This document shows, piece by piece, positions 26,055 to 41,440 of a DNA stretch of 64,000 bases; position 1 is the first letter of the stretch; every line of letters begins with the position of its first letter. The notes beneath the pieces were generated by a model. That model had not been told where the DNA came from. It ran no database searches and was given only the letters and a program-made list of their open reading frames with translations. A program made the position numbers and the translations under genes. This DNA is from Anaerohalosphaeraceae bacterium (GTDB lineage: Bacteria > Planctomycetota > Phycisphaerae > Sedimentisphaerales > Anaerohalosphaeraceae), in contig JBNRMN010000003.1 of the NCBI GenBank assembly GCA_050309605.1, positions 1-64,000 of the forward strand, given 5' to 3'.

Positions 26055-27875
26055 ATGGAAAATCAACAGAACAATCCAGCCGGGCTGGTACGAACGGAAA
26101 AAGTTCGGGTCGTCCAGGCCGATGCGCCGCTGATGCTGCGTTGCGGCAAGCATCTGGGGCCGATTGATGTCGCCTATGAAACCTATGGCCGGCTGTCTCC
26201 GGAAAAAGACAACGTGATTCTCATCTGTCATGCCCTCAGCGGCAACGCCCATGTGGCCGGCTACAACAGCCCCGATGACCGCAAGCCGGGCTGGTGGGAT
26301 GTGATGGTCGGCCCCGGCAAACCCATCGACACGGAACGGTATTTTGTCATCTGCTCCAACGTGCTGGGCGGCTGCAGCGGCACGACCGGCCCATCGGAAA
26401 TCAACCCGGCCACCGGCAAGCCGTATGGGTTGGATTTTCCGATCATTACGATTGAGGATATGGTTCATGTCCAGAAACGATTGCTTGAGGCGCTGGACAT
26501 TGACCACCTGCTGGCCGTCATCGGCGGCTCAATGGGTGGGATGCAAGTGCTTCAGTGGGCCGTGACGTATCCGGACGTGGTGGATGCGGCCCTATGTATC
26601 GCTTCCACCACACGCCTGAACGCCCAGTCGATTGCCTTTGACGCCGTCGGACGCAACGCGATTCTGAACGATCCCAACTTTCACAGCGGCCAATATCACG
26701 ACTGTACCGGCCCCAACCGCGGCCTGGCCATTGCCCGAATGATCGGCCATATTACCTATCTGTCGGAATTGTCGATGCGCAACAAGTTCGGACGGCAGCT
26801 TCGCACCGCCAAGGAATACCAATACGAATTCAACTCCGAATTCGCCGTCGAGACCTATCTCGATTATCAGGGCCAGACCTTCATCGAACGGTTTGACGCC
26901 AACAGCTACCTGTATATCACCAAGGCAATGGATTATTTCGACCTGATGCGGGAATACGGCACGCTGCGGCTGGCCTTTACCACATGTCGCTGCCGGTTTC
27001 TGGTGGCCAGTTTTTCCAGCGATTGGCTGTTTACACCGGCCCAGTCGGAAGAAATCGTCGAGGCGCTGGCCGCCGAAGGAAAAGACGTAACATACTGCAA
27101 CATTGAATCGTCATACGGACACGATGCATTTTTGCTGGAGGCCGAAAAACTCGGTGCGCTGATCGGCGGCTTTTTGAACAGCACCCTGCAGCGCATCCGG
27201 ACGGGCCGTCGTATTGTGGCTGAACACAAAAACGGACCGAACAAGTTCAAAATGTTTGAACGCGCCAAACGCGCCCGGGTGGACTACGAATTAATCGATT
27301 CGCTTATCGAACCGGGTAGCCGTGTGCTGGATTTGGGCTGCGGAGACGGCGAGCTGCTGGCCCGGCTGATTGAAGATAAAAACATCCTCGGCGAGGGGAT
27401 TGAGATTGATGAGGATATGGTCATTCATTGCACACAGCGGGGCCTGTCCGTGATTCATCGCGACATCGAACGCGGACTGGAAATGTATCCCAATGACACG
27501 TTTGACTACGCCGTCTTATCACAGACCATTCAGACGCTGCGCGATCCGCAAAAGGTGCTCATTGAGCTGCATCGCGTCGCACGCAAAGTCATCGTCAGTT
27601 TTCCGAACTTCGCCCACTGGCTCTGTCGGCTGCAATTGCTTTTCGGCGGTCGGGCGCCGCAAACGCGGCAATTGCCGTTTCGCTGGTACAATTCACCCAA
27701 TATCCATGTCCTGTCGCTGAAGGATTTTGACCGCTTCTGCGCCGAGCTGGATATCAAGGTCGAAAAACGCATTCCGCTGGGCAAAAAGTCCATCTGGCCG
27801 GTGCGGCTTTTGCCCAACCTGCTGGCCCCCCAGGCGGTCTATGTCACCAGTAAATACCAGCCGGAAACAATTTGA
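26055..27875 (+). CDS. metX: Homoserine O-acyltransferase MetX fused to a MetW-like SAM-binding domain
   Basis: ICHALSG, GGSMGG nucleophile, SSDWLF, YGHDAFL; C-terminal VDYELI..SRVLDLGCGDG..IVSFPNFAHW..WYNSPNIH MetW signature. Confidence 0.93.
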   Translation: MENQQNNPAGLVRTEKVRVVQADAPLMLRCGKHLGPIDVAYETYGRLSPEKDNVILICHALSGNAHVAGYNSPDDRKPGWWDVMVGPGKPIDTERYFVICSNVLGGCSGTTGPSEINPATGKPYGLDFPIITIEDMVHVQKRLLEALDIDHLLAVIGGSMGGMQVLQWAVTYPDVVDAALCIASTTRLNAQSIAFDAVGRNAILNDPNFHSGQYHDCTGPNRGLAIARMIGHITYLSELSMRNKFGRQLRTAKEYQYEFNSEFAVETYLDYQGQTFIERFDANSYLYITKAMDYFDLMREYGTLRLAFTTCRCRFLVASFSSDWLFTPAQSEEIVEALAAEGKDVTYCNIESSYGHDAFLLEAEKLGALIGGFLNSTLQRIRTGRRIVAEHKNGPNKFKMFERAKRARVDYELIDSLIEPGSRVLDLGCGDGELLARLIEDKNILGEGIEIDEDMVIHCTQRGLSVIHRDIERGLEMYPNDTFDYAVLSQTIQTLRDPQKVLIELHRVARKVIVSFPNFAHWLCRLQLLFGGRAPQTRQLPFRWYNSPNIHVLSLKDFDRFCAELDIKVEKRIPLGKKSIWPVRLLPNLLAPQAVYVTSKYQPETI

Positions 27876-27971: not shown

Positions 27972-30900
27972 CTATCCCGGCCAATGCGTCGCGGCATCTT
28001 CGATTTTGTGCTCGATATCGACCGCCTTTTCCTTGGTGCGCTGCACGACGACGTAAAAAACCGGAATCATAAACACACCGAGAACCGTCGCAGCAATCAT
28101 ACCGCCGAATACAGTGGTTCCCAATGATTTTCGCGCCTCGGCACCGGCACCGGTGGCAATCGCCAATGGCAGCATCCCCAACGCGGTTGTCAATGCCGTC
28201 ATTAAAATCGGACGAAACCGCAAACGCGCCGCCTCAATGGCCGACTCATAGACCGAATAGCCCTCTTCGTGGTGCTGTTTGGCAAACTCCACCAGCAGGA
28301 TGGCCGTCTTGCAAACTACACCGATCAGCAAAACGATTCCCATCTGCATATAAATATTGTTGTCAAACATTCTCAGCCAGGTAAAACCGACCGCTCCGAG
28401 AAGCCCCAGCGGTACCGACAGCACAATCGCAATTGGAATCGACCAGCTTTCATACTGCGCTGCCAAAAACAGATAGGCAAATAACGCCGCCAGCAGGAAC
28501 AGATAAATGGTTTTACCGCCCGCTTCAATTTCTTGAAGGCTCATCCCCGACCACTCATAGCCCATTGTCTCAGGCAACGTCTCCTCCAGCAATTCGGCCA
28601 CGCGGGCAATCGCCTGCCCGGAACTGTAGCCCGGTTGAGGATTTCCGGTGATGGTCGTAGCTGGATACATATTATATCGTGTAATCGACTGCGGTCCGGC
28701 CGTGTCACGAATCGTCGCCAGTGTTCGAATCGGAACCATCTGGCCGGTGCGGTTACGCACTTCCAGCCGCCCGATATCGTCGGCCGACGCCCGAAAATGC
28801 GGCTCGGCCTGTGCAATTACACGAAACGTGCGACCGTACAGATTAAAGTCATTGACATACGTACTGCCCAAATAGGTTTGAAGCGTGTTAAACAACGTTC
28901 CCAAAGGAACATCCATTGTTTGTGTCTTGACGCGATCCACATCGATATACAATTGCGGTACGTTCACTCGAAACGAATTATTCAAACGCGTAATCACCGG
29001 ATCGGCCATGGCGTTCTGAAGAAACGCATTGCCGGTTTGGGCCAGAGCCGCCAGCCCGGCTCCGCCCCGGTCCTGAACACGCACCTCAAAACCGCCCGCG
29101 ATGCCTATCCCCATAATCGGCGGCGGCTGCAACGCCAGAACCAGTGCTTCGGGAATCGCACCCAATTGCCCCTGAAGGCGCTGAATGATTTGCTTAATAT
29201 GAAGCGCCGGAGCAGTGCGTTTTGACCACGGCTCCAAATTCACAAAACACGCCCCGCCGTTGGACGCAATCCCCATATCCAGCATCGAAAACCCGCTGAT
29301 GGTAACATATTCAGCAACGCCTTCAGTCTGCCTGAGAATCTCATCAATCTGCAACATCACCTTATCCGTCCGCCGCAGCGACGCCCCTTCCGGAAGACGC
29401 ACGCCGATCATGATCGTGCCTTCATCTTCTTCCGGCAAAAATCCCGTCGGAAGACGATCAAACCCAACCACCGCCACACTTGTCGCAATCGCAAACAGCA
29501 GCAATCCAATCGCTGTTTTGCGGATAATGATCTTGACGATATCCGCATAGATAGAAGTCGTTCGCCGCATAAACCGATCAAACAGTTTGAAGATACCACC
29601 ATGTTCTTTCTCTTTGCTGCGCAGCAACACCCCGCATAAGGCCGGGCTGAGCGTCAGCGCAATCGTTGACGAAATCCAAACGGCCACCACGATCGTAAAC
29701 GCAAATTGCTGATACAGCATTCCGGTAATACCGCCGGACAGTACCGTCGGCACAAACACAGAGGTCAGCACCAGCGTGGTCGCAACAATCGGGCCGGTGA
29801 CCTGACGCATCGCTTTGGCGGCCGCTTCTTTGGGCCGCAGGCCCTCGTCAGCAATAATACGCACCGTATTTTCCACCACCACAATCGCATCATCTACCAC
29901 AATCCCAATCGCCAGCACCAATCCGAACAGCGTCATCGTGTTGATCGACATTCCTAATGCCATCATCAGCGCAAATGTCCCGATCAGCGCCACAGGAATG
30001 GAAATCGATGGAATCAGTGTCGCTCGCCAGTCAGCCAGAAAGACAAACACCGTCATCACCACCAGAGCCACCACCAACATGAGGGTATTGACCACTTCAC
30101 GGATAGATTCGCGAATAAACAACGTCGGACTGTACGGTTCAGTATAAGACAGCCCTTCGGGAAATGACGGCGCCAGTTCAGCCAGCGCCTCGCGCACACC
30201 GTCCACCACCTCCAGCGCATTGGCCCCCGGCATCGCGTAAATCGCTACCACAACTGTGGGCTGGCCCATATAACGCGCATTCCAGAAATATTCCTCAGCG
30301 CCCAATTCCACCCGCGCCACCTCACCGAGCCGAAGCAGACGACCGCCCGGATCCGAGCGGATGATAATATCCTCAAACTCTTGAGCGGTGCTCAACCGTC
30401 CCAGTGTTTTGACTGTAAATTGAAACTGTTGATCCGTCGGGCTGGGCATACCGCCGATCTGGCCGGCAGCCACTTGGATATTCTGTTCCCGAATCGCCGC
30501 CAGCACGTCGTCGGTCGTCAGGTCGTGGGCGCGAAGGCGCGTCGGATCCAGCCAGATGCGCATACCGAAACTCTTGGCACCCATCAGGCTGACTTCGCCA
30601 ACTCCCGGCACGCGAGACAGAACGTCTTTCACGTATAATGTGATATAGTTGCTCATATAGATGTCGTCAAACCGGCCCTCTTCGGCGTAAAAAGACAGCA
30701 TCATTGCAATATTAGTCGAACGCTTCTGGGTGGTCACTCCCTGACGAATGACTTCTTCCGGCAGCAACGGCTCAGCCAACGCCACACGGTTCTGTACCAG
30801 CACCGTGGCCATATCGATGTCCGTTCCCACCTCAAATGTCACTGTCAACTGCATGATCCCGTTATCACTGCTGTTGGAGGACATATAGATCATCCCGTCC

Positions 30901-31118
30901 ACTCCGTTGATGGCCTCTTCCAGGGGCGTAGCCACCGTTTCGGCCACCGTTTCGGCATTGGCACCGGGATAGGTTGCCTGCACCATCACGGTCGGCGGGG
31001 TAATATCCGGCGTCTTTTCCACCGGCAGCAGCGGCAAACAAATCAGCCCCACCAGCAAAATGACAATCGCAATGACACTTGCAAAAATCGGCCGATCAAT
31101 AAAAAACTTACTGAACAT
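27972..31118 (-). CDS. HAE1/AcrB-family RND efflux permease
   Basis: FFIDRPIFA, GIVVDDAIVVVEN, KTAILLVEFA, RFRPILMT. Confidence 0.96.
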   Translation of the reverse strand: MFSKFFIDRPIFASVIAIVILLVGLICLPLLPVEKTPDITPPTVMVQATYPGANAETVAETVATPLEEAINGVDGMIYMSSNSSDNGIMQLTVTFEVGTDIDMATVLVQNRVALAEPLLPEEVIRQGVTTQKRSTNIAMMLSFYAEEGRFDDIYMSNYITLYVKDVLSRVPGVGEVSLMGAKSFGMRIWLDPTRLRAHDLTTDDVLAAIREQNIQVAAGQIGGMPSPTDQQFQFTVKTLGRLSTAQEFEDIIIRSDPGGRLLRLGEVARVELGAEEYFWNARYMGQPTVVVAIYAMPGANALEVVDGVREALAELAPSFPEGLSYTEPYSPTLFIRESIREVVNTLMLVVALVVMTVFVFLADWRATLIPSISIPVALIGTFALMMALGMSINTMTLFGLVLAIGIVVDDAIVVVENTVRIIADEGLRPKEAAAKAMRQVTGPIVATTLVLTSVFVPTVLSGGITGMLYQQFAFTIVVAVWISSTIALTLSPALCGVLLRSKEKEHGGIFKLFDRFMRRTTSIYADIVKIIIRKTAIGLLLFAIATSVAVVGFDRLPTGFLPEEDEGTIMIGVRLPEGASLRRTDKVMLQIDEILRQTEGVAEYVTISGFSMLDMGIASNGGACFVNLEPWSKRTAPALHIKQIIQRLQGQLGAIPEALVLALQPPPIMGIGIAGGFEVRVQDRGGAGLAALAQTGNAFLQNAMADPVITRLNNSFRVNVPQLYIDVDRVKTQTMDVPLGTLFNTLQTYLGSTYVNDFNLYGRTFRVIAQAEPHFRASADDIGRLEVRNRTGQMVPIRTLATIRDTAGPQSITRYNMYPATTITGNPQPGYSSGQAIARVAELLEETLPETMGYEWSGMSLQEIEAGGKTIYLFLLAALFAYLFLAAQYESWSIPIAIVLSVPLGLLGAVGFTWLRMFDNNIYMQMGIVLLIGVVCKTAILLVEFAKQHHEEGYSVYESAIEAARLRFRPILMTALTTALGMLPLAIATGAGAEARKSLGTTVFGGMIAATVLGVFMIPVFYVVVQRTKEKAVDIEHKIEDAATHWPG

Positions 31119-31183
31119 AAAATGATCCTGTTAAGTTGTCAGGTTTTTAATTCCATACTTTATGCTATTTGTGCAACACCGTA

Positions 31184-32440
31184 TCAATCCTCGGTTTGCT
31201 TTGGTTCTGCCGCATCCGACTGATCATCAACAACACGGGCCCCCATGGCCCCCGTCGCCTCCGACGGCATCTGGTCGCCGCTGATCGGCTGAATCGGCAT
31301 ACCCGGCCGGGCGATATGAAACCCGCCAATAATGAATGTCTCACTGCCGTCTAATCCATCCGTGACCAAACGCAGCGAACCGTAACTGGTGCCAAGTTGA
31401 ATATCACGTCGCTGGAGCGTATTGTCCTGGTCAACGATCAGCACATATTTACCGCTCAAATCGGTATGCACCGCCTGTTCTGAAATCAACACCGCGTTCT
31501 TACGCTGCCGTACCGGCAGACTGACCCGCACGAACATCCCCGGCAACAGCGAGCCATCCTCATTGGCCAGTCGGCCGCGAATATAGACCGTACCGGTACG
31601 CGGATCAACGGTATTGTCCAGAAAATCAACCACTCCCTCATACGGATACCCATCCTGATTGGGCAGTCCGACTTGAACGGTCATTGGTTTCACATCATCA
31701 CCGCCCTGAAGCCGGCGCAGCAGATCACCTTCAAGCAGATGCTCACTGATATAAAAAAATACATACATCGGATCAACCTGCCGAACTGTGGTCAAGACGG
31801 TACGATCCAATGCGCCGACCAGATTGCCCACGTCCACCAGCCGCCGACCGATGCGACCGGTAATGGGACTGCGAATCGCGGTATAACTGAGATTCAGCTC
31901 GGCCATCTCCAGCGCGGCCTGAGCGCCAAGCACCTGCGCCTGCGCCGTGTCGTAGGCGGCCTGAGCGCGGGTCAGTTCCTGACGGCTGACCGAACCGCTG
32001 CTGACGGCCTTTTGGATACGCTCCAAATCTTCCTCCGCTCGCTTTAATTCGGTTTGGGCGGCGTTCAATGCCGATAAGGCCTCATCGCGACGGGAGCGAT
32101 AAATATCCGGCTCAATCGTAAACAACAACTGATCCCTTTCGACCAGACTGCCGTCGGTAAAGTGAATCTGCTCAAGATAGCCTTCCACACGAGCACGAAT
32201 CTCAACTACATTGACCGCCTCGGTCGTGCCGGTAAACTCCAGAAAGTCGGTAACATCTTTAATGGTGCATTCATCGACCGGCAGCGGGACCGGACCCTCT
32301 GTTCCGCCGCCGGCGGCATACTGAGCGATCATTTCCATGACGCCTTGCCGCATAGTCCAGTACCAGTAGCCTCCAAATCCCAAGCCGCCGACAATCAAAA
32401 TCAGAATCAGCCAAATAATAATTTTCTTCAATATCGCCAT
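31184..32440 (-). CDS. RND membrane fusion protein
   Basis: VEIRARVEGYL, YTAIRSPITGRIG, DNTVDPRTGT, LLPGMFV. Confidence 0.93.
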   Translation of the reverse strand: MAILKKIIIWLILILIVGGLGFGGYWYWTMRQGVMEMIAQYAAGGGTEGPVPLPVDECTIKDVTDFLEFTGTTEAVNVVEIRARVEGYLEQIHFTDGSLVERDQLLFTIEPDIYRSRRDEALSALNAAQTELKRAEEDLERIQKAVSSGSVSRQELTRAQAAYDTAQAQVLGAQAALEMAELNLSYTAIRSPITGRIGRRLVDVGNLVGALDRTVLTTVRQVDPMYVFFYISEHLLEGDLLRRLQGGDDVKPMTVQVGLPNQDGYPYEGVVDFLDNTVDPRTGTVYIRGRLANEDGSLLPGMFVRVSLPVRQRKNAVLISEQAVHTDLSGKYVLIVDQDNTLQRRDIQLGTSYGSLRLVTDGLDGSETFIIGGFHIARPGMPIQPISGDQMPSEATGAMGARVVDDQSDAAEPKQTED

Positions 32441-32454
32441 AAACCCTGTCCTTA

Positions 32455-33891
32455 TCAAAATGAGTCCTGTTGATTGTTCTGCACATCCCAGCCGCCGCCA
32501 AGTGCCTTGTACAGCGCAATGGTCTGCTGTATAATCTGGCCCTCGCTGACAGCCAGCCGATCTTCCTGCTGCGACAGCGACCGCTGCACATCGAGTACAT
32601 TTTGGAAATTGGTCAGCCCATTGCGATACAGTGTTTCGACTTTCTCAAGCGAATCGCGCGCCGCCTGGACCGACCGCCTCAGCGCTGCGGCCCGCTGCTG
32701 TTCCTGAACCAAACCGACCAGGGCGTTTTCCACCTCTTCCACGGCCCGCAGCACGGTCGCCTCATACGCCGCGGCAAGCTGTTTCGTACGGGCTTCTTCA
32801 ACCGCCGCCAGACTGCGCAGACGATTGCCGTCGAACAACGTCCACCGTACCTGGGGACCAAAACCAAACGTCCGGCTCGACCAATTACCTATATCCGAAA
32901 ACTGCAATGCTTCCACTCCCAGTGTTCCGGCCAGCGAAAATGACGGATACCGCTGCGCCTCGGCCAGTCCGATGCGCGCCGTCTGCGCCGCCAGCGCCCG
33001 CTCGGCGCTGCGGATATCGGGACGACGGCGCAGCAGCTCGGCCGGCAGTCCGGCTCTCAACGGCGTCTGGAGCTCCGGCAGCGTACCCGGCTCAAGCAGT
33101 TTGGTTCTCAGGGTGTGGGGCGTAGTACCCACCAGCACCGCCAGCCGATTGATCGCCGCAGTCTCGGCAATTCGAAGCGAGGGGATTTCCGACTCGGTAT
33201 TGGCCAGAATCAGTTGTGCCTGGACCACATCCAGCTCCGGTGCGATCTCGGCGGCGTAGCGGTTTTGGGTCAGCTCAAGCATTTTGCGCTGAATGTCAAC
33301 ATTGGCCGCGGCATAGTGAAGCCGTGCCTGAGCCGTGCGAAGTTCAATATAATTTCGCGCCACCTCGGCGCGTAAGCTCAAACGAACATCGTGATAATCC
33401 TCCACGCTTTGTTCCAGAGCCGCCTGAGCCGACTCCACCGTCCGACGAATCCGACCAAACAAGTCCAGCTCCCAGAAGGCATCAAATCCGGCGGTGTAAA
33501 GGCTGTGTTCGCCCCCGATCGCCGTCATCCCGTTGGCACTGGAACGAGTGCGGATATAGCCGCCGGTCGCGTCCACCGCCGGCCATTGCTCGCCGGCAGC
33601 GTAGGCGCGCTGCGCTCGGGACTGCTCAATCCGCGCCACGGCCGCCTGCAAGTCCAGGCTGCCTTCATCGGCCCGGGCAATCAGATCGGTCAACACCGGG
33701 TCCTCAAAGGCCGTCCACCACTGCTCCAGGGCCGCCACATCAACCGGCTCGGTCGGCGCCGTACCGCTCCACTGCTGCGGCAGTTCCATCTCCGGCCGCT
33801 CATAATCCGGCCCAACCGTGCAGCCGACCACGGCCAGCAGTGCCAGCCCGGCCACGCCCGGTCCGCATAAAGACTTCAAAGAGTTCAACAT
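32455..33891 (-). CDS. NodT/OprM-family outer-membrane efflux lipoprotein
   Basis: VVGCTVGPDYERP lipobox, WELDLFGR, LLRRRPDI, LYKALGGGW. Confidence 0.95.
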   Translation of the reverse strand: MLNSLKSLCGPGVAGLALLAVVGCTVGPDYERPEMELPQQWSGTAPTEPVDVAALEQWWTAFEDPVLTDLIARADEGSLDLQAAVARIEQSRAQRAYAAGEQWPAVDATGGYIRTRSSANGMTAIGGEHSLYTAGFDAFWELDLFGRIRRTVESAQAALEQSVEDYHDVRLSLRAEVARNYIELRTAQARLHYAAANVDIQRKMLELTQNRYAAEIAPELDVVQAQLILANTESEIPSLRIAETAAINRLAVLVGTTPHTLRTKLLEPGTLPELQTPLRAGLPAELLRRRPDIRSAERALAAQTARIGLAEAQRYPSFSLAGTLGVEALQFSDIGNWSSRTFGFGPQVRWTLFDGNRLRSLAAVEEARTKQLAAAYEATVLRAVEEVENALVGLVQEQQRAAALRRSVQAARDSLEKVETLYRNGLTNFQNVLDVQRSLSQQEDRLAVSEGQIIQQTIALYKALGGGWDVQNNQQDSF

Positions 33892-33953
33892 TGGTTAATC
33901 CTTTTCACTATAAACACACCACAGGCTGCCTTCAAACCTCTTGTGCCCCGATT

Positions 33954-34562
33954 TCACCCGTTGGACGGCGACAAATACACGCGAAACATCTTCAGCAATG
34001 ACGCCGCCTCGCGCTGCGGGTCAAAGTCGCCCAGTTCAGGCACCATACACAGCGTCCCGATCATGGCACGCTGGAAAAAATCAGCCGCTTTTTTCGGATT
34101 GACCGCCTTAAAAAGGCCGTCCTCGGCTCCCTTTTGAATGATGCTTGACATCAGCACCTTTTCCCGATTGACATGGTCGTGTTTGACAGCCATATCGATC
34201 TTGCAATAGACTTGTGCCTGATCCAAAAAACGAAAATACGCGATATTTCGTGAAAAAAACGTAAATGTCGCTTCCAAAAGAGCATACAACTTTTTGGCCG
34301 GCGTCTTGGCCGCCCCGACAGCCTCGCGCTGATGATGGCGAATCTGATCAAAGAGCCGAACCGCGGTGTAAACCAGCAAGGCGTCTTTGTCCTTGAAATA
34401 GTTATACAACGTCCCTGTTCCAATGCCGGCCGCCGCCGCCACCCGCTGCACGGTTAATTTCTCAAGTCCATATTTTTTAAGGACTTCAAGCACCGCCGCA
34501 TACGCCGACTCCCGAATATACTGCTCTGTAAATGCCTGTCGTTTTTGGGATAATTGTCCCAT
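33954..34562 (-). CDS. TetR/AcrR-family regulator
   Basis: HTH LTVQRVAAAAGIGTGTLYNYFKDKDAL; heads the RND operon. Confidence 0.95.
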   Translation of the reverse strand: MGQLSQKRQAFTEQYIRESAYAAVLEVLKKYGLEKLTVQRVAAAAGIGTGTLYNYFKDKDALLVYTAVRLFDQIRHHQREAVGAAKTPAKKLYALLEATFTFFSRNIAYFRFLDQAQVYCKIDMAVKHDHVNREKVLMSSIIQKGAEDGLFKAVNPKKAADFFQRAMIGTLCMVPELGDFDPQREAASLLKMFRVYLSPSNG

Positions 34563-34627: not shown

Positions 34628-34796
34628 GAAAAAAATGGTGGAATTTGAATGCTGCTTGCCTTGAGATTTTCGGTGGACAGCAAGATAAGTGTAGAAATAC
34701 GGGTAATTTTGGTATTTTTCCGGCCCCAAAACCGGTATCATCAACCCGCAGACAATTTAGTATGGATGTGAAAACTTTGGGTCAGGAGACAAAGCA

Positions 34797-37238
34797 ATGG
34801 CAGGACAGCGGCTTCGGGACTATCTGAAGGCGGGTAAATTTGCAGTTACAGCCGAGCTGACCAGCGGGCCGGGCTATCAGGTTGGACCGTTTGTTCAGTT
34901 CCTGAAGGACTGGCAAACATCGGACAAACAAATGCCGCAGGGGTTCCACTTTGCCGGCATCACATTCCCCCAAAACCCCGGCGGCGCGGCCAATCTCGAT
35001 CCGGCCGACGCCCTGGCGGTGATGGCCGCTGACGGACTGCTGGACGGCCTGGACTATATCCCCCATATCAGCTGCAAAGACAGCAATACCGATGCGCTGA
35101 TCAGTACACTGGTCGGCTACCGCACGCGCGGCATCGAAAGCGTGCTGGCCCTGACCGGCGATAAACCGCTGACGGCCAAGGGCGTCTTCGAGGTCGAATC
35201 GGTCGGCCTGCTGGCGATGATTCAGAAACTCAATCGCGACGCGCTGCTCAAGGCCAAATCCGGCCAATGGGACGCCGTGCATCGCTTTTTTGCCGGGGCG
35301 GCGGTTTCGCCGTTCAAGTACACCGAGGCCTCGCTGATGCAGCAGTACTATAAAATGGAAAAAAAAATCGCCGCCGGAGCGCAGTTTCTTATTACCCAGG
35401 TCGGCTGGGACTGGAAAAAGTCCGTCGAGCTGATGCGCTACCTGAAGGACAACGCCATCGACACCCCGGTCATCGGGAATGTCTATTGGCTGACCACCCG
35501 CACACCGGCGCCGCGGCTGATGCACGACATCAAGCTGCCCGGCTGTTACGTCAGCGACGCCCTGCTGGCTCGACTGCAATCCGAAAGCGTTGATGAGCAC
35601 ATTGAACGCGCCGCCCAGCAGACCGCCATGTACAAGGCCATCGGGGCCGCAGGCGTGGACATCGGCGGTGTTCACGACGTTGAGATTTTTATGCGCATCC
35701 TCAATCGAGCCGCCGAAATCGGCGATCAGTGGGAACAATACAAAGACAACCTCTGCTGGCCCGCTGAAAAGGCGTTCTATCTGTATGACGACAACGGCAA
35801 ACAGACGGCGTTATCGGCGCCGAAGAAAAAATGCAACGAACGGTTCTTTAACCTCATGCACCGGGCGATTTTGGACCCGACGTATTGCGGTTTTCGGGCG
35901 TTTCGGGCAACGCTGCGGGCGTTTCGAGCCGACCGCGACGGCAGTTTCAGCAACAAGGCCTTTAACGGGATCGAAAAACCGATCAAGTACTGGCTGTTCG
36001 AATGCGAAGAATGCGGCGATTGCTACTTGCCCGAAAACTTCAGCTATTGTACAATCGGCGGCTGTGAAAAAGGGCTGGACAATGCCCCGTGCGGCGATGC
36101 CACGGTTGACGGCCGGTGCGGCAATAACCTTGAACGGCTGTGTATCGGCGAAAAAATTTATGATTCCGCCGCCGCTGAACCGAACGGGCGCCAGACACTG
36201 CGCCGGCAGATTAACCGCCCGCGCAAGCCGGAACTGGAACATACCAGTTCGATTATTAATTATCTGTTTGGAAAGGATCATACGATGACAACACCGCTGC
36301 TCGGCATCGGTGAGGCCATTCACGCCTCAATTCCGAAAACAGGACAGGTGATGCGCGAGCTGGACGCCCTCGGCCCGGACGCCTATACCGCCTCCAGCGG
36401 TCCGCTGGATTATATCCGCGCCCTGATTGAACAGCAGGCCGACGACGGAGCCGCTTATATCGCCGTCAACCTGGACGCCTTCGGCGAGACCGATCCGCAG
36501 CGGGCGGTGAAGATGATGGTGCAGTACGCCCGTCTCGTACGCCGCTGGGGCAAAGGCGTGCCGCTGTGCGCAGACAGCAGCAACGACGATGTGCTCAAGG
36601 CCGGCCTGAAGGAATGGTACAATACCGATCAGGCCGTCAAGCCGCCGCTGTTGAACTCGATCAAGGTCTATACCGCCGATGCGATGATGCCGCTGAAAAA
36701 GGAATACGACTTTGCCTTCATCGGGCTGCTGGTCAGTGAAGACAAACCCACCGGCCCCGGCGGTTCGCATTCGGTTGAGGAATTGGTCAGTCTGGCCAAA
36801 ACCCTGTTCGACAAGGCGATGCAGCACGGCTTTAAGCCTCACGAGATATTCTTTGACTCGACCGTCTTCCCGATCGCCATTGATATGCCGATGGAGCCGG
36901 GCGTGCCGGGGTACACCTATCGGGCGTTTGAAACCATCAAACGCATCAAGAATGATCCGCAGATGAAAGATTGCCACTGTTCGCTGGGCATCAGCAACTG
37001 CTGCCGCGACCTGCCGGGACGCAAGATCGGCATCTGCCGTGCCTATGTCGCCAAGGCGATGGAATACGGACTGGACGCCGGCATCGTCAACACCGCCCAC
37101 CGCTACGGCGAAAAAGACCCCGACCCGGAACTGGTCAAGCTCATCGACGCCTATGCCAAACTGGACGGCTCACCGGAACGACTCAACGAGGCGATGACGC
37201 TGATGGGCCAATTTTGCGCCGCGACGCGAAAAGCCTGA
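34797..37238 (+). CDS. Fusion: MetF-like methylene-THF reductase + MetV-like Cys cluster + pterin-binding (AcsE/MetH-type) methyltransferase domain
   Basis: N-terminal PHISCKDSN, LALTGD, KKIAAGAQFLITQ. Middle CEECGDC..CTIGGCEKGLDNAPCG..GRC..C. C-terminal IGEAIHASIP, DSSN, LLNSI, FDSTVFPIA, LGISN, GLDAGIVN. CAGGAG RBS. Confidence 0.85.
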   Translation: MAGQRLRDYLKAGKFAVTAELTSGPGYQVGPFVQFLKDWQTSDKQMPQGFHFAGITFPQNPGGAANLDPADALAVMAADGLLDGLDYIPHISCKDSNTDALISTLVGYRTRGIESVLALTGDKPLTAKGVFEVESVGLLAMIQKLNRDALLKAKSGQWDAVHRFFAGAAVSPFKYTEASLMQQYYKMEKKIAAGAQFLITQVGWDWKKSVELMRYLKDNAIDTPVIGNVYWLTTRTPAPRLMHDIKLPGCYVSDALLARLQSESVDEHIERAAQQTAMYKAIGAAGVDIGGVHDVEIFMRILNRAAEIGDQWEQYKDNLCWPAEKAFYLYDDNGKQTALSAPKKKCNERFFNLMHRAILDPTYCGFRAFRATLRAFRADRDGSFSNKAFNGIEKPIKYWLFECEECGDCYLPENFSYCTIGGCEKGLDNAPCGDATVDGRCGNNLERLCIGEKIYDSAAAEPNGRQTLRRQINRPRKPELEHTSSIINYLFGKDHTMTTPLLGIGEAIHASIPKTGQVMRELDALGPDAYTASSGPLDYIRALIEQQADDGAAYIAVNLDAFGETDPQRAVKMMVQYARLVRRWGKGVPLCADSSNDDVLKAGLKEWYNTDQAVKPPLLNSIKVYTADAMMPLKKEYDFAFIGLLVSEDKPTGPGGSHSVEELVSLAKTLFDKAMQHGFKPHEIFFDSTVFPIAIDMPMEPGVPGYTYRAFETIKRIKNDPQMKDCHCSLGISNCCRDLPGRKIGICRAYVAKAMEYGLDAGIVNTAHRYGEKDPDPELVKLIDAYAKLDGSPERLNEAMTLMGQFCAATRKA

Positions 37239-37285: not shown

Positions 37286-37939
37286 TTAAGACGGTTTGGC
37301 GTGTCGCCCAATCAGCCAGTCGCACCAGGTGTCAAACCCCTGTCCGGTTTCAGCAGAGACCTGCAAAATCGATGCATCAGGATTGACAGCCTGAATATCG
37401 GCCAGCACCCGCTCCAACCGAAACGGGATATAGTCCATCAGGTCAATCTTGTTGATGAGCACCACATCCACTCCCGCAAACGTCCCGGGATATTTGGCGG
37501 GCTTGTCGTCGCCTTCCGGCACACTCAACAGCACCACCCGCCCCGATTCGCCCAGATCAAAGGCGGACGGACACACCAAATTTCCTACATTTTCGATAAA
37601 AATAATATCTTTTGAGGCCGCATCCATCGCTTTCAGGGCCGTGGCAACCTGCTCGGCGCTGAGATGGCAGGCCCCCTGCGTTTCGATCTGAACCGCCTCA
37701 GCACCGGTTTCCCGAATCCGTTGGGCATCGTGATCGGTACGGATGTCGCCTTCGATCACCGCCATGTGCAATCGATCGTGCAGCCGCCGGATGGTCCGGG
37801 CCAGCAGCGTCGTCTTGCCCGAACCGGGCGAGGAAATCACATTCAGACACAAAATGCCGTTTTCAGCAAAAAAGGCTCGATTTTTTTGGGCAAATTGGTC
37901 GTTTCGACTCAAAATCTTCTGATTCAATGAAACTTTCAT
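37286..37939 (-). CDS. hypB: HypB-like nickel-insertion GTPase
   Basis: SSPGSGKT, VIEGD, GACHL, ENVGNLVCP..FDLGE, EGDDKPAKYP, NKIDL. Confidence 0.92.
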   Translation of the reverse strand: MKVSLNQKILSRNDQFAQKNRAFFAENGILCLNVISSPGSGKTTLLARTIRRLHDRLHMAVIEGDIRTDHDAQRIRETGAEAVQIETQGACHLSAEQVATALKAMDAASKDIIFIENVGNLVCPSAFDLGESGRVVLLSVPEGDDKPAKYPGTFAGVDVVLINKIDLMDYIPFRLERVLADIQAVNPDASILQVSAETGQGFDTWCDWLIGRHAKPS

Positions 37940-37968
37940 ACCGGTTCCGTCTTTGTTGTCCCTACTTG

Positions 37969-38985
37969 CTATACGATTAACTCATTGCCGACTTTACGGG
38001 CACGCTGCGGTTTGTCAAGGTTGATGTTCAGTGCCATACCGATTTCGACCAGCAGATTCCAGCCCGCACACAGGAACACATACGGATTCAGCGCCCCGGC
38101 ATCCGGCACGCGGATTGTCTCAAAACGGGTATCGCGAGCGGCAATGGCCACGACCTTCAGCCCGACGCCCTTGACGAGTACGTCCTCAAATTTTTCTTCC
38201 TCATCGGCAATCGGATCGACCACAAATACCACATCCTGCGGGTCCATCACCTCTTCGATGCCGTGAACGGCGTAGGTTCCTTCGAGAAAGTCGCTCTTTT
38301 TGCGGGTAATCTCGTTGGTCTTGAGCGTCAATTCCTCGGCCACCCCGTCATTGTAGCCGGCAAAATAGATCGTCGGCGCTGCGGCGGCAGCCTTGACGAT
38401 CGCGGCCTCAATCGGCAGCGTCAGGGCGGTTTCGATCTTGTCCGCCAGCGCCGCACAGGCCAAGGCGTCAATCGACCCGTCGATGTGCCTTACGATGGAC
38501 TCGTAAAAGAGCGCCTGTTCGACGACGCTTTTCGTCGCTGCGACCGCCTGCTCCCAGCCGCATGTCAGGACAAATGTTTGCGTGCAGGCCTCCTCCAGCA
38601 GCGTGCCGGCATTGGCCGTCAGTCCAAATCGATTGGCGTTGCCCGACTCGGCCAGTTTTTTCGCCAGCAGCACCACTTCCTTCGTCCGACCCGAATTGGA
38701 CGCGCAGAACACCGCAAACTTCGACAGATCGTATTGAAACGCCTGCCGCGAACCTTCGGTGTGCAGACTCACATCCAGCCCCCGCGTCAGCGCTTTGCGA
38801 ATCGCGTTCTTGGCCGGGAAAATGCGGCTGGACCCCTCGCCGGTCATCAGCAGCCGACCGACCGAAGCGACCCGAGCGGCCGCGTCCTTGGCCTGTTCGC
38901 GGTCAAATTCCCTGACAATGCCGACCGTCTCCATCATCTCCTGTACCAACGCATACTGTGCGTATCTTTGATCCTGTGTGTTCAT
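37969..38985 (-). CDS. Double-SIS sugar-phosphate isomerase/deaminase-like protein (GlmS isomerase module without glutaminase)
   Basis: TGEGSS, SNSGRTKE, EQAVAATKS, EELTLKTNE, C-terminal LDKPQRARKVGN. GAGGG RBS. Confidence 0.8.
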   Translation of the reverse strand: MNTQDQRYAQYALVQEMMETVGIVREFDREQAKDAAARVASVGRLLMTGEGSSRIFPAKNAIRKALTRGLDVSLHTEGSRQAFQYDLSKFAVFCASNSGRTKEVVLLAKKLAESGNANRFGLTANAGTLLEEACTQTFVLTCGWEQAVAATKSVVEQALFYESIVRHIDGSIDALACAALADKIETALTLPIEAAIVKAAAAAPTIYFAGYNDGVAEELTLKTNEITRKKSDFLEGTYAVHGIEEVMDPQDVVFVVDPIADEEEKFEDVLVKGVGLKVVAIAARDTRFETIRVPDAGALNPYVFLCAGWNLLVEIGMALNINLDKPQRARKVGNELIV

Positions 38986-39044
38986 GTGTGCCCTCATTTC
39001 TGCAATAGTTTGAATTTGGTTAATGATTTCAGCAAATTCTCTTT

Positions 39045-39229
39045 CGCCCCGAAGGGGCAATATAAACCAGCCCAGGGCAACGCCCTATCGGGCGGCTCGC
39101 GCCGCCGCGCTGTTGTAATGTGCTCCCCTCCTTACCAAGGAGGGGATGTCCTGCGTCAGCAGGACAGGGGTGGTTGCGTCATTCACAGCGCTACGCCCCA
39201 TCGGGCGGCTCGCGCCGCCGCGCTGTTGT
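39045..39229. repeat. Composite REP-like palindromic element cluster
   Basis: GCCCCGAAGGGGC, AGCCCAGGGCAACGCCCT, an exact 30-nt direct repeat (39087-39116 = 39200-39229), CCCCTCCTT-ACC-AAGGAGGGG, TGTCCTGC-GTCA-GCAGGACA. Confidence 0.8.
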
Positions 39230-41440
39230 TTAGTTTACCTCCTTTTTGAGCAAGCGTTCAACCTGCTGCTTATACTGCTCGGTTTGCTCCTGCACGAGCC
39301 GAACAAATTCATTATCCTGGACCGTACCAATAGCAGCGGTCATCTCCTCAAGATGGCGATACGTCGCCTGCCGGAAGGGATTGTCAAAATCCTTTTTTCG
39401 CGAGTCATACACCCGACGGCAAATCAGCTCCTGTATCGCAACCGATTGCCTCAGCGCATCAAGCCATTGCGTCCGGCTGAGCATCTCGGTCTCGTACAGC
39501 CCGCACAGCACGGCAAAGGCGTGTTTCTGTTTTTCCAGCGGATAGGCCGCCCACAACTGGTCATAGCGACGGTGAATCGCCTCCCACGAATCCAGCACGC
39601 CCGCACCGATATCGGCCCGCAGCTTATCCACATCGCCGGCCGGCACAAGCTGACCGCCCAGATTGACCCACTGGGCGACGCGCGGGCCGCGCAGCGCCTT
39701 CTGTACCGCCTCAAAATCCGCTTCGGGATTGGCCTGCATATATGCCAGCACGTTGCGCACGGCGTAATAATAGAGCATCTGCACGTAGGCTTCATCGCCT
39801 TTCTGCGGCTTGCAAATGACCGCCTTGCGAGATGATTTTTCCAGGTGTTCGCCGAGCACCTCAAGGCCGTTGACTGCCTCGGCCGGGCCGTTCAGCAACG
39901 CACGCCCCTGCCGGATCAACGCATCCTCGCTTAAGGCATCGACCGATTGTCCCGCTCGGCGGGCGGCGGCCTTGCCCGTCCACAACGCCAGCAGCCTGCG
40001 AGCGCTGAGAATCTCTTCAACCGTATCCGGCGCCAGCGGGTCGATCTCAATATGCTGGACTTTCTTCAGGCGTTTGTCGCGACTTTGAAATTTCCACGAA
40101 TTGCGCGCCAGTGCATACATATTCGACCGCCACCAAAACGCCGGAATCACCTCAAGCTGATCACAGGACACGTTGTTATTCAGCAGGCTGAACGGCAGCG
40201 GAATATCCAATTCCGCCGGATAATCGCCCTTGGCCAGCAGTACAAACGACGCGAACCGGCTGGAATGCTTGATGCTCGTACACAGTCCCGGCCAAAAGCC
40301 GCGCCCGGCCTGAACCTCATTGTCATTGGCCCGGCTGTTGTGATTCGATCCGATGGTCGCCCCGGCGGCCATGTTGCTCTGGCCCAGCACGACCGCCGCA
40401 ATCAAAAATGAATTGTTATGATGCTGTTCGTGCGCCGGAAAAATCAGATTGTTCAGCACCTCGCAGCAGGAAATCGTCGAGTTGTCGCCCAGAAAGGAAT
40501 TAATCAGCCGCGCGCCGTACTTGAGATTCGAATGGTCGGCCAGCACAAACCGCACCGCCTTGCAGCCGTAAAAAATATGGCAGCCGTAGCCGATAATGCC
40601 GTTGACCAGCTCGACGCCTTCGCCGATCTGCGTGGGTTCCTGAGACGAGGAATTGAGAGTCAGATTTTTGAGCTTGTTGGCGCCCTTGATATAGGCGTGC
40701 GAGCCGATCTTGACATCCTTGAGAATCCGCGAGTTTTTGATCACGCACTGATCGCCCACCGTTCCGTAATACCCCCGCCGGGCATCAAATTTATTCTGCG
40801 TATAGTGTTTGAACTTCTCCTGCATCGCCGTGTCATCGCGGTATTTGGCCCACAGATAGGCGTCCGCCGCAATCATTCCGTCAAACGGCATCACACGACG
40901 ACCTCCGGCCTCATTCATCAGATCCAGCCAGACGCGCACCGACTCCGGCTCACCGTCTTTGAGGATACCGTTTCCGAATTTGGCGTGGTTGGTCGTGTGC
41001 ATCTCGTCGATATTGGCCAGAATACACCGGTCGCCGATGATGTAGTGCGCCAGATAACTGACATTGTGAATCGCCGCGTCATTGCCGATGTCGCAGGCGA
41101 CAATCTGACTGTTCCAGATACCCGTCGGAAGCTGCAGGTCGTGATGCTCCAGCACCGCGCTGCACAATCGACCGATTCGAACCAGGCCGAAAAAACTGCT
41201 GTTCTTCACCTGGCCGGGGTCAAACTCGTCGGTCACCAGCAGTTCATCCCAGTTCTCAGCGTTATTGCCGTTTTTGACAAGCTGTTCCAGCTCATCGGCG
41301 CGCAGATGACGCCACGGCGGGAGCGGCTGAGGGTTTTGCTGATTGCGAAGGGTGTACTCATCCTGCCCGGAACGCAGATACTCCGAAGGCACAAAATCCC
41401 GACCGATGCCGCCGGCAGATTTAATCAAGACATGTTCCAT
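39230..41440 (-). CDS. DUF4954-family protein (left-handed beta-helix repeats)
   Basis: RHLRADELEQLVKNGN N-terminus, hexapeptide-like repeats, HEQHHNNSFL, GATIGSNHNSR. Confidence 0.78.
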   Translation of the reverse strand: MEHVLIKSAGGIGRDFVPSEYLRSGQDEYTLRNQQNPQPLPPWRHLRADELEQLVKNGNNAENWDELLVTDEFDPGQVKNSSFFGLVRIGRLCSAVLEHHDLQLPTGIWNSQIVACDIGNDAAIHNVSYLAHYIIGDRCILANIDEMHTTNHAKFGNGILKDGEPESVRVWLDLMNEAGGRRVMPFDGMIAADAYLWAKYRDDTAMQEKFKHYTQNKFDARRGYYGTVGDQCVIKNSRILKDVKIGSHAYIKGANKLKNLTLNSSSQEPTQIGEGVELVNGIIGYGCHIFYGCKAVRFVLADHSNLKYGARLINSFLGDNSTISCCEVLNNLIFPAHEQHHNNSFLIAAVVLGQSNMAAGATIGSNHNSRANDNEVQAGRGFWPGLCTSIKHSSRFASFVLLAKGDYPAELDIPLPFSLLNNNVSCDQLEVIPAFWWRSNMYALARNSWKFQSRDKRLKKVQHIEIDPLAPDTVEEILSARRLLALWTGKAAARRAGQSVDALSEDALIRQGRALLNGPAEAVNGLEVLGEHLEKSSRKAVICKPQKGDEAYVQMLYYYAVRNVLAYMQANPEADFEAVQKALRGPRVAQWVNLGGQLVPAGDVDKLRADIGAGVLDSWEAIHRRYDQLWAAYPLEKQKHAFAVLCGLYETEMLSRTQWLDALRQSVAIQELICRRVYDSRKKDFDNPFRQATYRHLEEMTAAIGTVQDNEFVRLVQEQTEQYKQQVERLLKKEVN

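Follow-up and report, generated by a model that had tools for sequence, protein, structure and literature searches.

We have analyzed a stretch of 64,000 nt (the window), positions 1-64,000 of contig JBNRMN010000003.1 from Anaerohalosphaeraceae bacterium (assembly GCA_050309605.1), with the focus on one gene whose product joins in a single chain a MetF-like methylenetetrahydrofolate reductase (MTHFR), a Cys-rich MetV-like module and a pterin-binding barrel of the MeTr/AcsE methyltransferase type. The gene is an open reading frame (ORF) of 813 codons in a single frame, begins with ATG and is preceded by a ribosome-binding site. Its features, with the evidence for each, are as follows (aa, amino acids):

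34797..37238, + strand: gene of the 813-aa MetF-MetV-MeTr fusion protein (P0001); ORF, translation, three Pfam domains, full-length homologs.
34785..34788, + strand: GGAG ribosome-binding site, 9 nt 5′ of the ATG; direct reading of the sequence.
34797..35786, + strand: MetF-like MTHFR TIM barrel, aa ~1-330; Pfam, alignment with E. coli MetF, invariant columns, Foldseek.
35949..36179, + strand: MetV-like module, Pfam DUF5981, aa 385-461; Pfam, invariant Cys.
36285..37235, + strand: MeTr/AcsE-type pterin-binding TIM barrel, aa 497-813; Pfam, NCBIfam, PDB alignments, Foldseek, predicted complex.

A preliminary description of the locus had proposed such a three-part chain of MTHFR, Cys cluster and pterin barrel, and every detail that was checked against Pfam, the structural model and Foldseek proved correct. 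The three domains searched for (MTHFR, MetV/MTHFR C-terminal and Pterin_bind) all scored above the Pfam gathering cut-offs: PF02219 at aa 83-275 with 59.8 bits (cut-off 24), PF12225 (DUF5981, ‘MTHFR C-terminal’, the MetV family) at aa 385-461 with 49.8 bits (cut-off 23) and PF00809 at aa 539-735 with 37.9 bits (cut-off 25.5). At the level of sequence each domain thus belongs to its own family, i.e. MTHFR, MetV and MeTr/MetH folate domain, respectively. Every match of the fusion protein in NCBIfam lies far under the equivalog cut-off of its model, so no curated family claims the protein. The AlphaFold2 model, calculated with 27 family members (pLDDT 89.7, pTM 0.90), consists of two TIM barrels bridged by a helical, Cys-rich linker. 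Neither a B12-binding (DxHxxG) motif nor a homocysteine-binding domain was found in the 813-aa protein by motif and domain checks, in agreement with the preliminary description.

The conservation of residues was assessed in an alignment of 27 full-length members with 29-86% identity to the query. In the MetF part E20, H90, D122, K174 and Q183 are invariant. The segments PHISCKD and LALTGDKP were aligned by HMMER with PHLTCID and VALRGDLP of E. coli MetF, H90 corresponding to its His and D122 to its Asp. The catalytic residues of the E. coli enzyme are Glu28 and Asp120; the latter pairs with D122, and E20, judging from its placement at the end of strand 1, would be the equivalent of Glu28. In Foldseek comparisons with PDB structures the N-terminal barrel matched E. 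coli and T. thermophilus MTHFR with TM-scores on target of 0.71-0.78. The MetV-like module contains exactly eight Cys (403, 406, 409, 418, 423, 432, 441 and 449; nt 36003-36143), all of them invariant, and a N-A-P-C-G-D motif at aa 429-434. MetV of Clostridium ljungdahlii is described as carrying a NGPCGG signature and two [4Fe4S] sites, and the MetFV enzyme as two-subunit, FMN-containing and dependent on reduced ferredoxin (PMC8515935). The eight Cys and the N-A-P-C-G-D motif fit a putative pair of [4Fe4S] sites like that of C. ljungdahlii MetV.

The C-terminal barrel found its best NCBIfam match in PRK07535, ‘methyltetrahydrofolate:corrinoid/iron-sulfur protein methyltransferase’, with 90 bits against a cut-off of 259 bits, and the NCBIfam matches of this domain are MeTr and metH models with no dihydropteroate synthase (DHPS) model among them. 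All 15 PDB sequence matches are MeTr, MetH or methyltransferase II (MT II) of O-demethylases, the best being MeTr of C. hydrogenoformans (2yci); the entries aligned include MeTr 2yci/2e7f, the MetH folate domain 3k13 and the O-demethylase MT II 4o0q, which was deposited as ‘DHPS’, yet bears the title of an O-demethylation methyltransferase. Foldseek gave TM-scores on target of 0.74-0.83 with MeTr, the MetH folate domain and O-demethylase MT II. Residues D593, N620, D687, N734 and R748 align with the LCLDSTN, INS, IDP, GLSN and INRT motifs of M. thermoacetica MeTr (2e7f), in which D75, N96, D160, N199 and R207 are presumably the residues that bind and activate folate; D593 is invariant and the other four are at least 90% conserved in the 27 members. 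The grouping with MeTr/MetH and the retained folate set run counter to the possibility, raised beforehand, that the barrel is DHPS-like or lacks folate-binding residues. A DHPS-like function was rejected on the NCBIfam and PDB matches and on the presence of a separate DHPS-like gene: Pterin_bind matched only two genes of the source genome (G000; 3.40 Mb, 97 contigs, 99.73% complete), the DHPS-like one on contig C92 (297.9 bits) and the fusion gene.

The fusion is no rarity. Of 8000 candidates scored in a database clustered at 90% identity, 960 proteins reached E<=1e-3; the top 120 of these are 753-835 aa long, and 119 of these 120 have all three Pfam domains. Among 50%-identity clusters at least seven further tri-domain representatives were found, with identity down to 32%. 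One protein of 849 aa (P0146) has the permuted order Pterin_bind-MTHFR-DUF5981, which suggests that the same two enzymes were fused independently. In the class sample, 151 genomes from the class of the window including G000, the full-length fusion is present in 15: the source genome, 13 of its 14 family mates and G036. Species-representative genomes yielded 401 relatives, and the best 80 of these come mostly from records titled Phycisphaerae, Sedimentisphaerales and Anaerohalosphaeraceae, and also from records titled Kiritimatiellales, Pontiellaceae, Verrucomicrobiota and Lentisphaerales. Of 101 genomes sampled from the class of G151, 4 have the tri-domain protein and 11 have MetF-MetV without the third domain. 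In the source annotation the homologs are merely called ‘methylenetetrahydrofolate reductase (C-terminal domain-containing protein)’. An assembly artefact, a concern voiced in the preliminary description, was rejected on these full-length fusions in the cluster database, the class genomes and other lineages.

The metabolic context of the fusion was sought in the gene inventory of the source genome, where the following genes are of importance (HcyMT, homocysteine methyltransferase):

Window, 26055..27875, + strand: metX-metW fusion (homoserine O-acetyltransferase and MetW), 606 aa; Pfam Abhydrolase_1 and MetW.
G000:C67:143618-144244: His-on corrinoid protein, 208 aa, cap and B12 domains, DLHDIG motif.
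C21: stand-alone HcyMT, 298 aa, adjoining cysS.
C17: HcyMT-MTHFR (YitJ-type) fusion, 626 aa, with a conventional MTHFR.
C63: RACo/RamA-type activator, Fer2, Raco_middle and RACo_C domains.
C34: DUF1638 protein.

The metX-metW fusion lies 6.9 kb upstream of the fusion gene, where the preliminary description had placed metXW at about 7 kb, and since its product catalyzes the first step of de novo methionine synthesis, a methionine synthase is needed. No match to MetE was found in the source genome, and the MetH model TIGR02082 matched there homocysteine-domain pieces only (best E 4.4e-53). As the fusion is the only pterin protein other than the DHPS-like one, the sole route from folate to methionine would by elimination run via its C-terminal barrel. 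The remaining parts of a split synthase are there: pterin, corrinoid (cap and B12, His-on) and homocysteine modules on separate polypeptides, a RACo/RamA-type activator and DUF1638. The genome census suggested in the preliminary description thus gave stand-alone corrinoid, HcyMT and RACo genes and no full metH.

Directly observed are the domains, the conservation of catalytic residues, the genes present in the genome and the gene order at the loci of relatives. From these we consider the fusion protein probably to be a bifunctional enzyme, a MetFV-type reductase joined to a MeTr-type methyltransferase, that acts as the folate module of a split B12-dependent methionine synthase. In the scheme that we infer, including cofactors, electron donor, direction of flux, channelling and actual partners, the N-terminal MetF with the fused MetV would form a reductase of the clostridial MetFV type interconverting 5,10-methylene-tetrahydrofolate (CH2-THF) and 5-methyl-tetrahydrofolate (CH3-THF), with electrons probably supplied by ferredoxin or flavodoxin. 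The C-terminal barrel would exchange methyl groups between CH3-THF and a corrinoid protein made as a separate chain, in its cob(I)amide state. The likeliest candidate for this protein is the 208-aa His-on protein encoded on C67, and the route would lead from CH2-THF via CH3-THF to the CH3-Co(III)-corrinoid protein. The methyl group would then be passed to homocysteine by the stand-alone HcyMT (C21) or the HcyMT-MTHFR fusion (C17), and cob(II) would be repaired by the ATP-dependent RACo/RamA-type activator (C63) and the DUF1638 protein (C34). A split methionine synthase had been one of the options put forward earlier, and it gains from the inventory described above; the proposal of an enzyme that couples methylene/methyl-THF redox to methyl exchange with a corrinoid protein from another locus is likewise supported by the domains and the genome inventory.

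The contact between the C-terminal barrel (aa 495-813) and the C67 corrinoid protein was modelled. The predicted complex scored 0.68 vs 0.21 for the best of three controls; in the reference sets, 116 of 157 solved complexes and 2 of 215 mismatched pairs attain this mark. Three runs shared at least 87% of the contacts, with the pLDDT of the partner at least 85. In the model, the loops of the barrel that follow D687 and N734 contact residues adjoining the DxHxxG loop of the corrinoid protein. Since complexes of the MetH folate and cobalamin domains and of MeTr with the corrinoid/iron-sulfur protein (CoFeSP) have already been solved, the score may reflect likeness only.

Support also comes from relatives in which the parts occur separately. 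Stand-alone orthologs of the C-terminal barrel were found in four genomes of the same order that have no MetFV match, i.e. G103 (57% identity), G096 (48%), G110 and G117 (45%); in these genomes MetFV was either lost or never present, and no pterin-containing MetH occurs in any of the four. In G110 and G117 only 12 bp separate the end of the ortholog from the HcyMT-MTHFR gene downstream, and in G103 it sits after ThiD2-ThiE, the same place that the full fusion occupies in G138. In G174, from the class of G151, the gene order is HcyMT-MTHFR, MetF-MetV, pterin methyltransferase. A pterin methyltransferase gene is the immediate neighbour in four of nine MetF-MetV-only loci, in both orders, with FolD as a neighbour in one and formyltetrahydrofolate synthetase (FTHFS) in one; around three divergent tri-domain loci no queried partner was found.

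The distribution of the proposed partners agrees with this picture. In 11 of the 15 fusion-bearing class genomes there is no pterin-containing MetH or other folate-domain methyltransferase. All 19 genomes that have the fusion or the C-terminal ortholog encode DUF1638, which in the class sample is largely complementary to full MetH (both in 16 genomes, MetH only in 58, DUF1638 only in 59, neither in 18), counts that are descriptive and without a statistical test because the sampled genomes are related. Several of the 18 genomes with neither have two-piece forms of MetH. The C67 corrinoid protein has orthologs in 92 of the 151 genomes, including all 19; their genes often adjoin DUF1638 (e.g. G054, G064 and G128) and in one case HcyMT (G127). 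As a separate observation, two adjacent genes together encode MetH, divided at model position ~612/613 (homocysteine and folate half; B12 and activation half), in G017, G027, G051, G067 and G088, genomes of family f14 of the class sample.

Several facts weigh against a split methionine synthase. Full-length MetH coexists with the fusion in G089 and in G151, G152 and G154 (which carry loci L098, L095 and L099), and G018, G082 and G138 combine the fusion with a MetH piece (model 323/325-1182) and a separate homocysteine piece. The fusion thus coexists with folate-domain methionine synthases in seven genomes and is not simply a replacement of MetH. The source genome already has the conventional MTHFR on C17, which leaves a second, fused one unexplained, and none of the proposed partners adjoins the fusion gene there. 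Riboswitches for S-adenosylmethionine (SAM), B12 or other ligands were found neither 5′ of the fusion gene nor 5′ of the partner loci that were scanned (window, L013-L016 and L031). The operons at L098 and L095 resemble an inducible bulk one-carbon pathway more than a housekeeping one.

These operons bring in the alternative, possible but unlikely in our judgement, that the fusion acts in the oxidative direction as a methyl funnel. The C-terminal barrel would be a MT II, passing methyl groups from methyl-corrinoid to THF; MetFV would oxidize CH3-THF to CH2-THF, FolD and FTHFS would convert it to formate and ATP, and the formate would be exported, with methionine as a side branch of a corrinoid hub. 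The model for such a hub is MtgBCDE of Ruegeria pomeroyi, where, according to PMC12478193, a substrate methyltransferase, a pterin methyltransferase proposed to be reversible and a homocysteine methyltransferase share one corrinoid protein. At L098 (record titled Pontiellaceae) a divergent AraC/PocR-type regulator is followed by FolD, the fusion, a formate/nitrite transporter, FTHFS, a corrinoid protein (53% identical to that of C67), RACo and DUF1638, and L095 (Kiritimatiellales) has the same order plus a URO-D-family protein with a thioredoxin-like domain; the formate channel and the inducible-type regulator in the operon fit the conversion of methyl groups to formate with ATP. Five of the 80 loci (L034, L095, L098, L102 and L106), from at least three lineages, have FolD and/or FTHFS next to the fusion.

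Further clusters are consistent with this alternative. In G016 the pair pterin methyltransferase < MetF-MetV is followed by a URO-D-family methyltransferase, a corrinoid protein (52% identical to C67), RACo, a 467-aa unknown protein and HcyMT (43% identical to C21); this genome also has a full MetH. The 467-aa ORF between RACo and HcyMT (L023:13854-15257, + strand) has no Pfam match. In G060 a URO-D-family gene lies directly 5′ of the corrinoid-protein ortholog, with a divergent AraC/PocR regulator, and altogether URO-D-family genes adjoin the corrinoid protein or the MetFV-pterin pair in G016, G060, L095, L131 and L135. Clusters of the G016, G060 and L098 types would fit a corrinoid hub like Ruegeria MtgBCDE and would equally fit a bulk flux of one-carbon units through formate and methyl-corrinoid. 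The persistence of the fusion in genomes with full MetH points the same way. MetFV-type reductases are given as the catabolic type in acetogens in PMC8515935, and for Sphingobium PMC11868366 documents a MTHFR that oxidizes CH3-THF downstream of demethylases.

For the source genome this alternative has less in its favour. The genes that bear on it are:

C66: FTHFS.
C73 (L028:7274-8341), C32 (L029:6767-7852) and C65 (L030:1131-2381): three URO-D-family genes in sugar-type loci, with no corrinoid protein there.

No substrate-side methyltransferase (MT I) is assignable in this genome, where MttB and MtaB were not found, and the L098 operon itself has no MT I. The URO-D protein of the G060 type has no homolog in the source genome, and that of the C73 type does not track MetFV: its orthologs, present in 26 of the 151 class genomes, occur in G103, G110 and G117, which have no MetFV, and were not found in G036, G131 and G096, while the clustered URO-D protein of G016 is only 35% identical. 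Four relatives dispense with MetFV and keep the C-terminal barrel. The characterized two-subunit MetFV uses reduced ferredoxin (PMC8515935), so that the oxidation of CH3-THF would be thermodynamically unfavourable unless another acceptor served. On the missing MT I, the untracked URO-D proteins, the loss of MetFV in relatives and the ferredoxin-driven MetFV, we rank the biosynthetic reading first and the catabolic one second; the two are compatible and not mutually exclusive. The O-methyl funnel, the other option of the preliminary description, receives only indirect support and is weak for the source genome. The URO-D loci of this genome also carry AraC regulators, GFO/IDH/MocA oxidoreductases, ThuA, DUF6807, a MFS transporter and a xylose-isomerase-like TIM barrel, and their URO-D proteins could be methyltransferases or decarboxylases acting on sugars.

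A wider version of the catabolic route, which we regard as rather doubtful, would make the fusion the core of a corrinoid-dependent ‘methyl fermentation’ in anaerobic polysaccharide-degrading bacteria of the Planctomycetes-Verrucomicrobia-Chlamydiae (PVC) group (Phycisphaerae, Kiritimatiellales and Lentisphaerales). Methyl groups, possibly released from O-methylated sugars by URO-D-family proteins, would be loaded onto the small corrinoid protein; the fusion would transfer them to THF and oxidize them within a single enzyme, and FolD and FTHFS would lead to exported formate with the gain of ATP, the same hub feeding methionine synthesis.

That one of the two barrels is catalytically dead, the protein being a MTHFR with a folate-binding or regulatory appendage or a methyltransferase alone, could be suggested by the modest Pfam scores (38-60 bits) and the sub-threshold NCBIfam matches. 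It is very unlikely, as the key residues are invariant or at least 90% conserved in members down to 29% identity and align with the active-site motifs of solved enzymes, both barrels are modelled at high confidence, and stand-alone orthologs of each half exist, often as adjacent genes. Most improbable of all is a methyl branch of the Wood-Ljungdahl type, with MetFV and AcsE fused and feeding CoFeSP and acetyl-CoA synthase (ACS) or mercury methylation by HgcA, to which the best NCBIfam and PDB matches of the C-terminal barrel (PRK07535 and 2yci) and the acetogen type of the reductase would point: such a partner was rejected because the 99.73% complete source genome has no match to ACS/CdhC and none to CdhD, to whose family the CoFeSP large subunit and the HgcA corrinoid domain belong.

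Two further genes of the source genome touch the corrinoid system:

G000:C67:141168-143387 (L014:5168-7387), - strand: EtfB-EtfA fusion, 739 aa, divergent beside the C67 corrinoid gene.
G000:C52:42464-43213 (L015:6464-7213), + strand: second cap and B12-binding protein, 249 aa, without the DxHxxG His ligand motif.

The pairing of EtfBA with the corrinoid gene recurs in four of eight relatives examined (G138, G103, G089 and G145). A specific link of the EtfB-EtfA fusion with MetFV as its electron partner was dropped, as the pairing is also found in G103, which has no MetFV; the protein is a possible electron donor for corrinoid reactivation. Elsewhere, the riboswitch scan matched only one tRNA and one fluoride riboswitch, the latter at L013:13710-13772, - strand, on C21 of the source genome (52 bits against a gathering score of 34).

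In the window, the fusion gene is flanked by genes of other kinds:

27972-34562, - strand: RND efflux operon, divergent from the fusion gene; AcrB-type (1048 aa), HlyD-type (424 aa) and OEP (478 aa) proteins and a TetR regulator.
37286-41440, - strand: genes convergent to the fusion gene; 217-aa CobW/HypB/UreG-type GTPase, 363-aa SIS-domain protein and 736-aa DUF4954/DUF6819 protein.

When proteins of the source genome were compared by tblastn with the 80 related loci, many of which are short contigs, the TetR, cobW-like GTPase and SIS genes were found near the fusion in none of the 80; the immediate neighbours in the window are thus not conserved. The corrinoid protein together with RACo was found near the fusion in only two of the 80.

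At the level of sequence the proposed system as a whole agrees with a known kind, the split cobalamin-dependent methionine synthase. In Phaeobacter inhibens a three-part MetH with RamA-like and DUF1638 reactivation proteins has been described (Price et al. 2018, PMC5764234), in which, as in the source genome, the pterin, corrinoid and homocysteine modules lie on separate polypeptides. Shared features are the lack of the PF02965 reactivation domain on the parts examined, with a RACo/RamA-type activator and DUF1638 instead, and, with the Ruegeria system as well, a corrinoid protein as a hub able to serve several methyltransferases. Unlike in Phaeobacter and Ruegeria, the pterin module is covalently fused to MetF-MetV, the hosts are PVC bacteria of strict-anaerobe type and not aerobic Rhodobacterales, and the genes are scattered in the source genome. 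The preliminary description spoke of a new system, which overstates the case: it is a new fusion inside the split MetH/corrinoid hub kind.

The individual modules have their own counterparts. With the MetFV of C. ljungdahlii (PMC8515935) the fusion shares the MetF TIM barrel, the MetV module with eight Cys and N-x-P-C-G, and the lack of a NAD(P)H-binding extension; it differs in having F and then V in one chain, followed by the methyltransferase barrel, and in a genome without acetyl-CoA synthase. MeTr/AcsE, the MetH folate domain and MT II (2yci, 2e7f, 3k13, 5von and 4o0q) have in common with the C-terminal barrel the TIM-barrel fold and the Asp/Asn/Asp/Asn/Arg folate set, whereas the identity is only ~20%, the barrel here is the C-terminal part of a reductase and would be paired not with CoFeSP but with a small His-on corrinoid protein of the MetH type. 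The HcyMT/MTHFR proteins of the YitJ type (PRK08645) are also MTHFRs fused to a methionine-synthase module, one being encoded in the same genome (C17) and others being operon neighbours of the C-terminal ortholog in G110 and G117; YitJ, however, joins a conventional MetF to the homocysteine end, whereas in the fusion it is the folate end that is joined, and to MetFV. Sphingobium lignivorans has in S6MTHFR, which works together with THF-dependent demethylases, likewise a MTHFR dedicated to a methyl-transfer system and possibly oxidizing CH3-THF, but one that is aerobic, corrinoid-independent, single-domain and unfused (PMC11868366).

According to Price et al. 2021 (PMC7857596), characterized MetF proteins have PF02219 as their sole domain, and a MetFV-pterin fusion is not among the split MetH forms in the passages of the GapMind description consulted (PMC7311316). 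No description of a fusion of MetF/MetV with a pterin methyltransferase was found in the literature as covered, mostly at abstract level and outside subscription journals and bioRxiv supplements, in line with the preliminary description, in which no characterized protein of this architecture was known. What is new in relation to the described cases found is the covalent union of a MetFV reductase and a methyltransferase in genomes without acetyl-CoA synthase.

If the proposed function is true, the fusions in both orders and the adjacent genes would constitute a Rosetta-stone link between MetFV and methyltransferases of the MeTr type that are not part of the Wood-Ljungdahl pathway. With which electron partner MetFV enzymes work has long been debated in acetogen bioenergetics, and the fusion family would offer a natural single-chain MetF-MetV for biochemistry and structure. 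In Kiritimatiellales, the FolD-FocA-FTHFS-corrinoid operons hint at a route that may lead from methyl groups to formate or the other way round. An entire order of anaerobic Phycisphaerae, which automated tools would score as having no methionine synthase, would make methionine by a split corrinoid-protein system with its folate module joined to a ferredoxin-type MTHFR, which would bear on the predictions of auxotrophy and B12-dependence for abundant sediment and digester bacteria.

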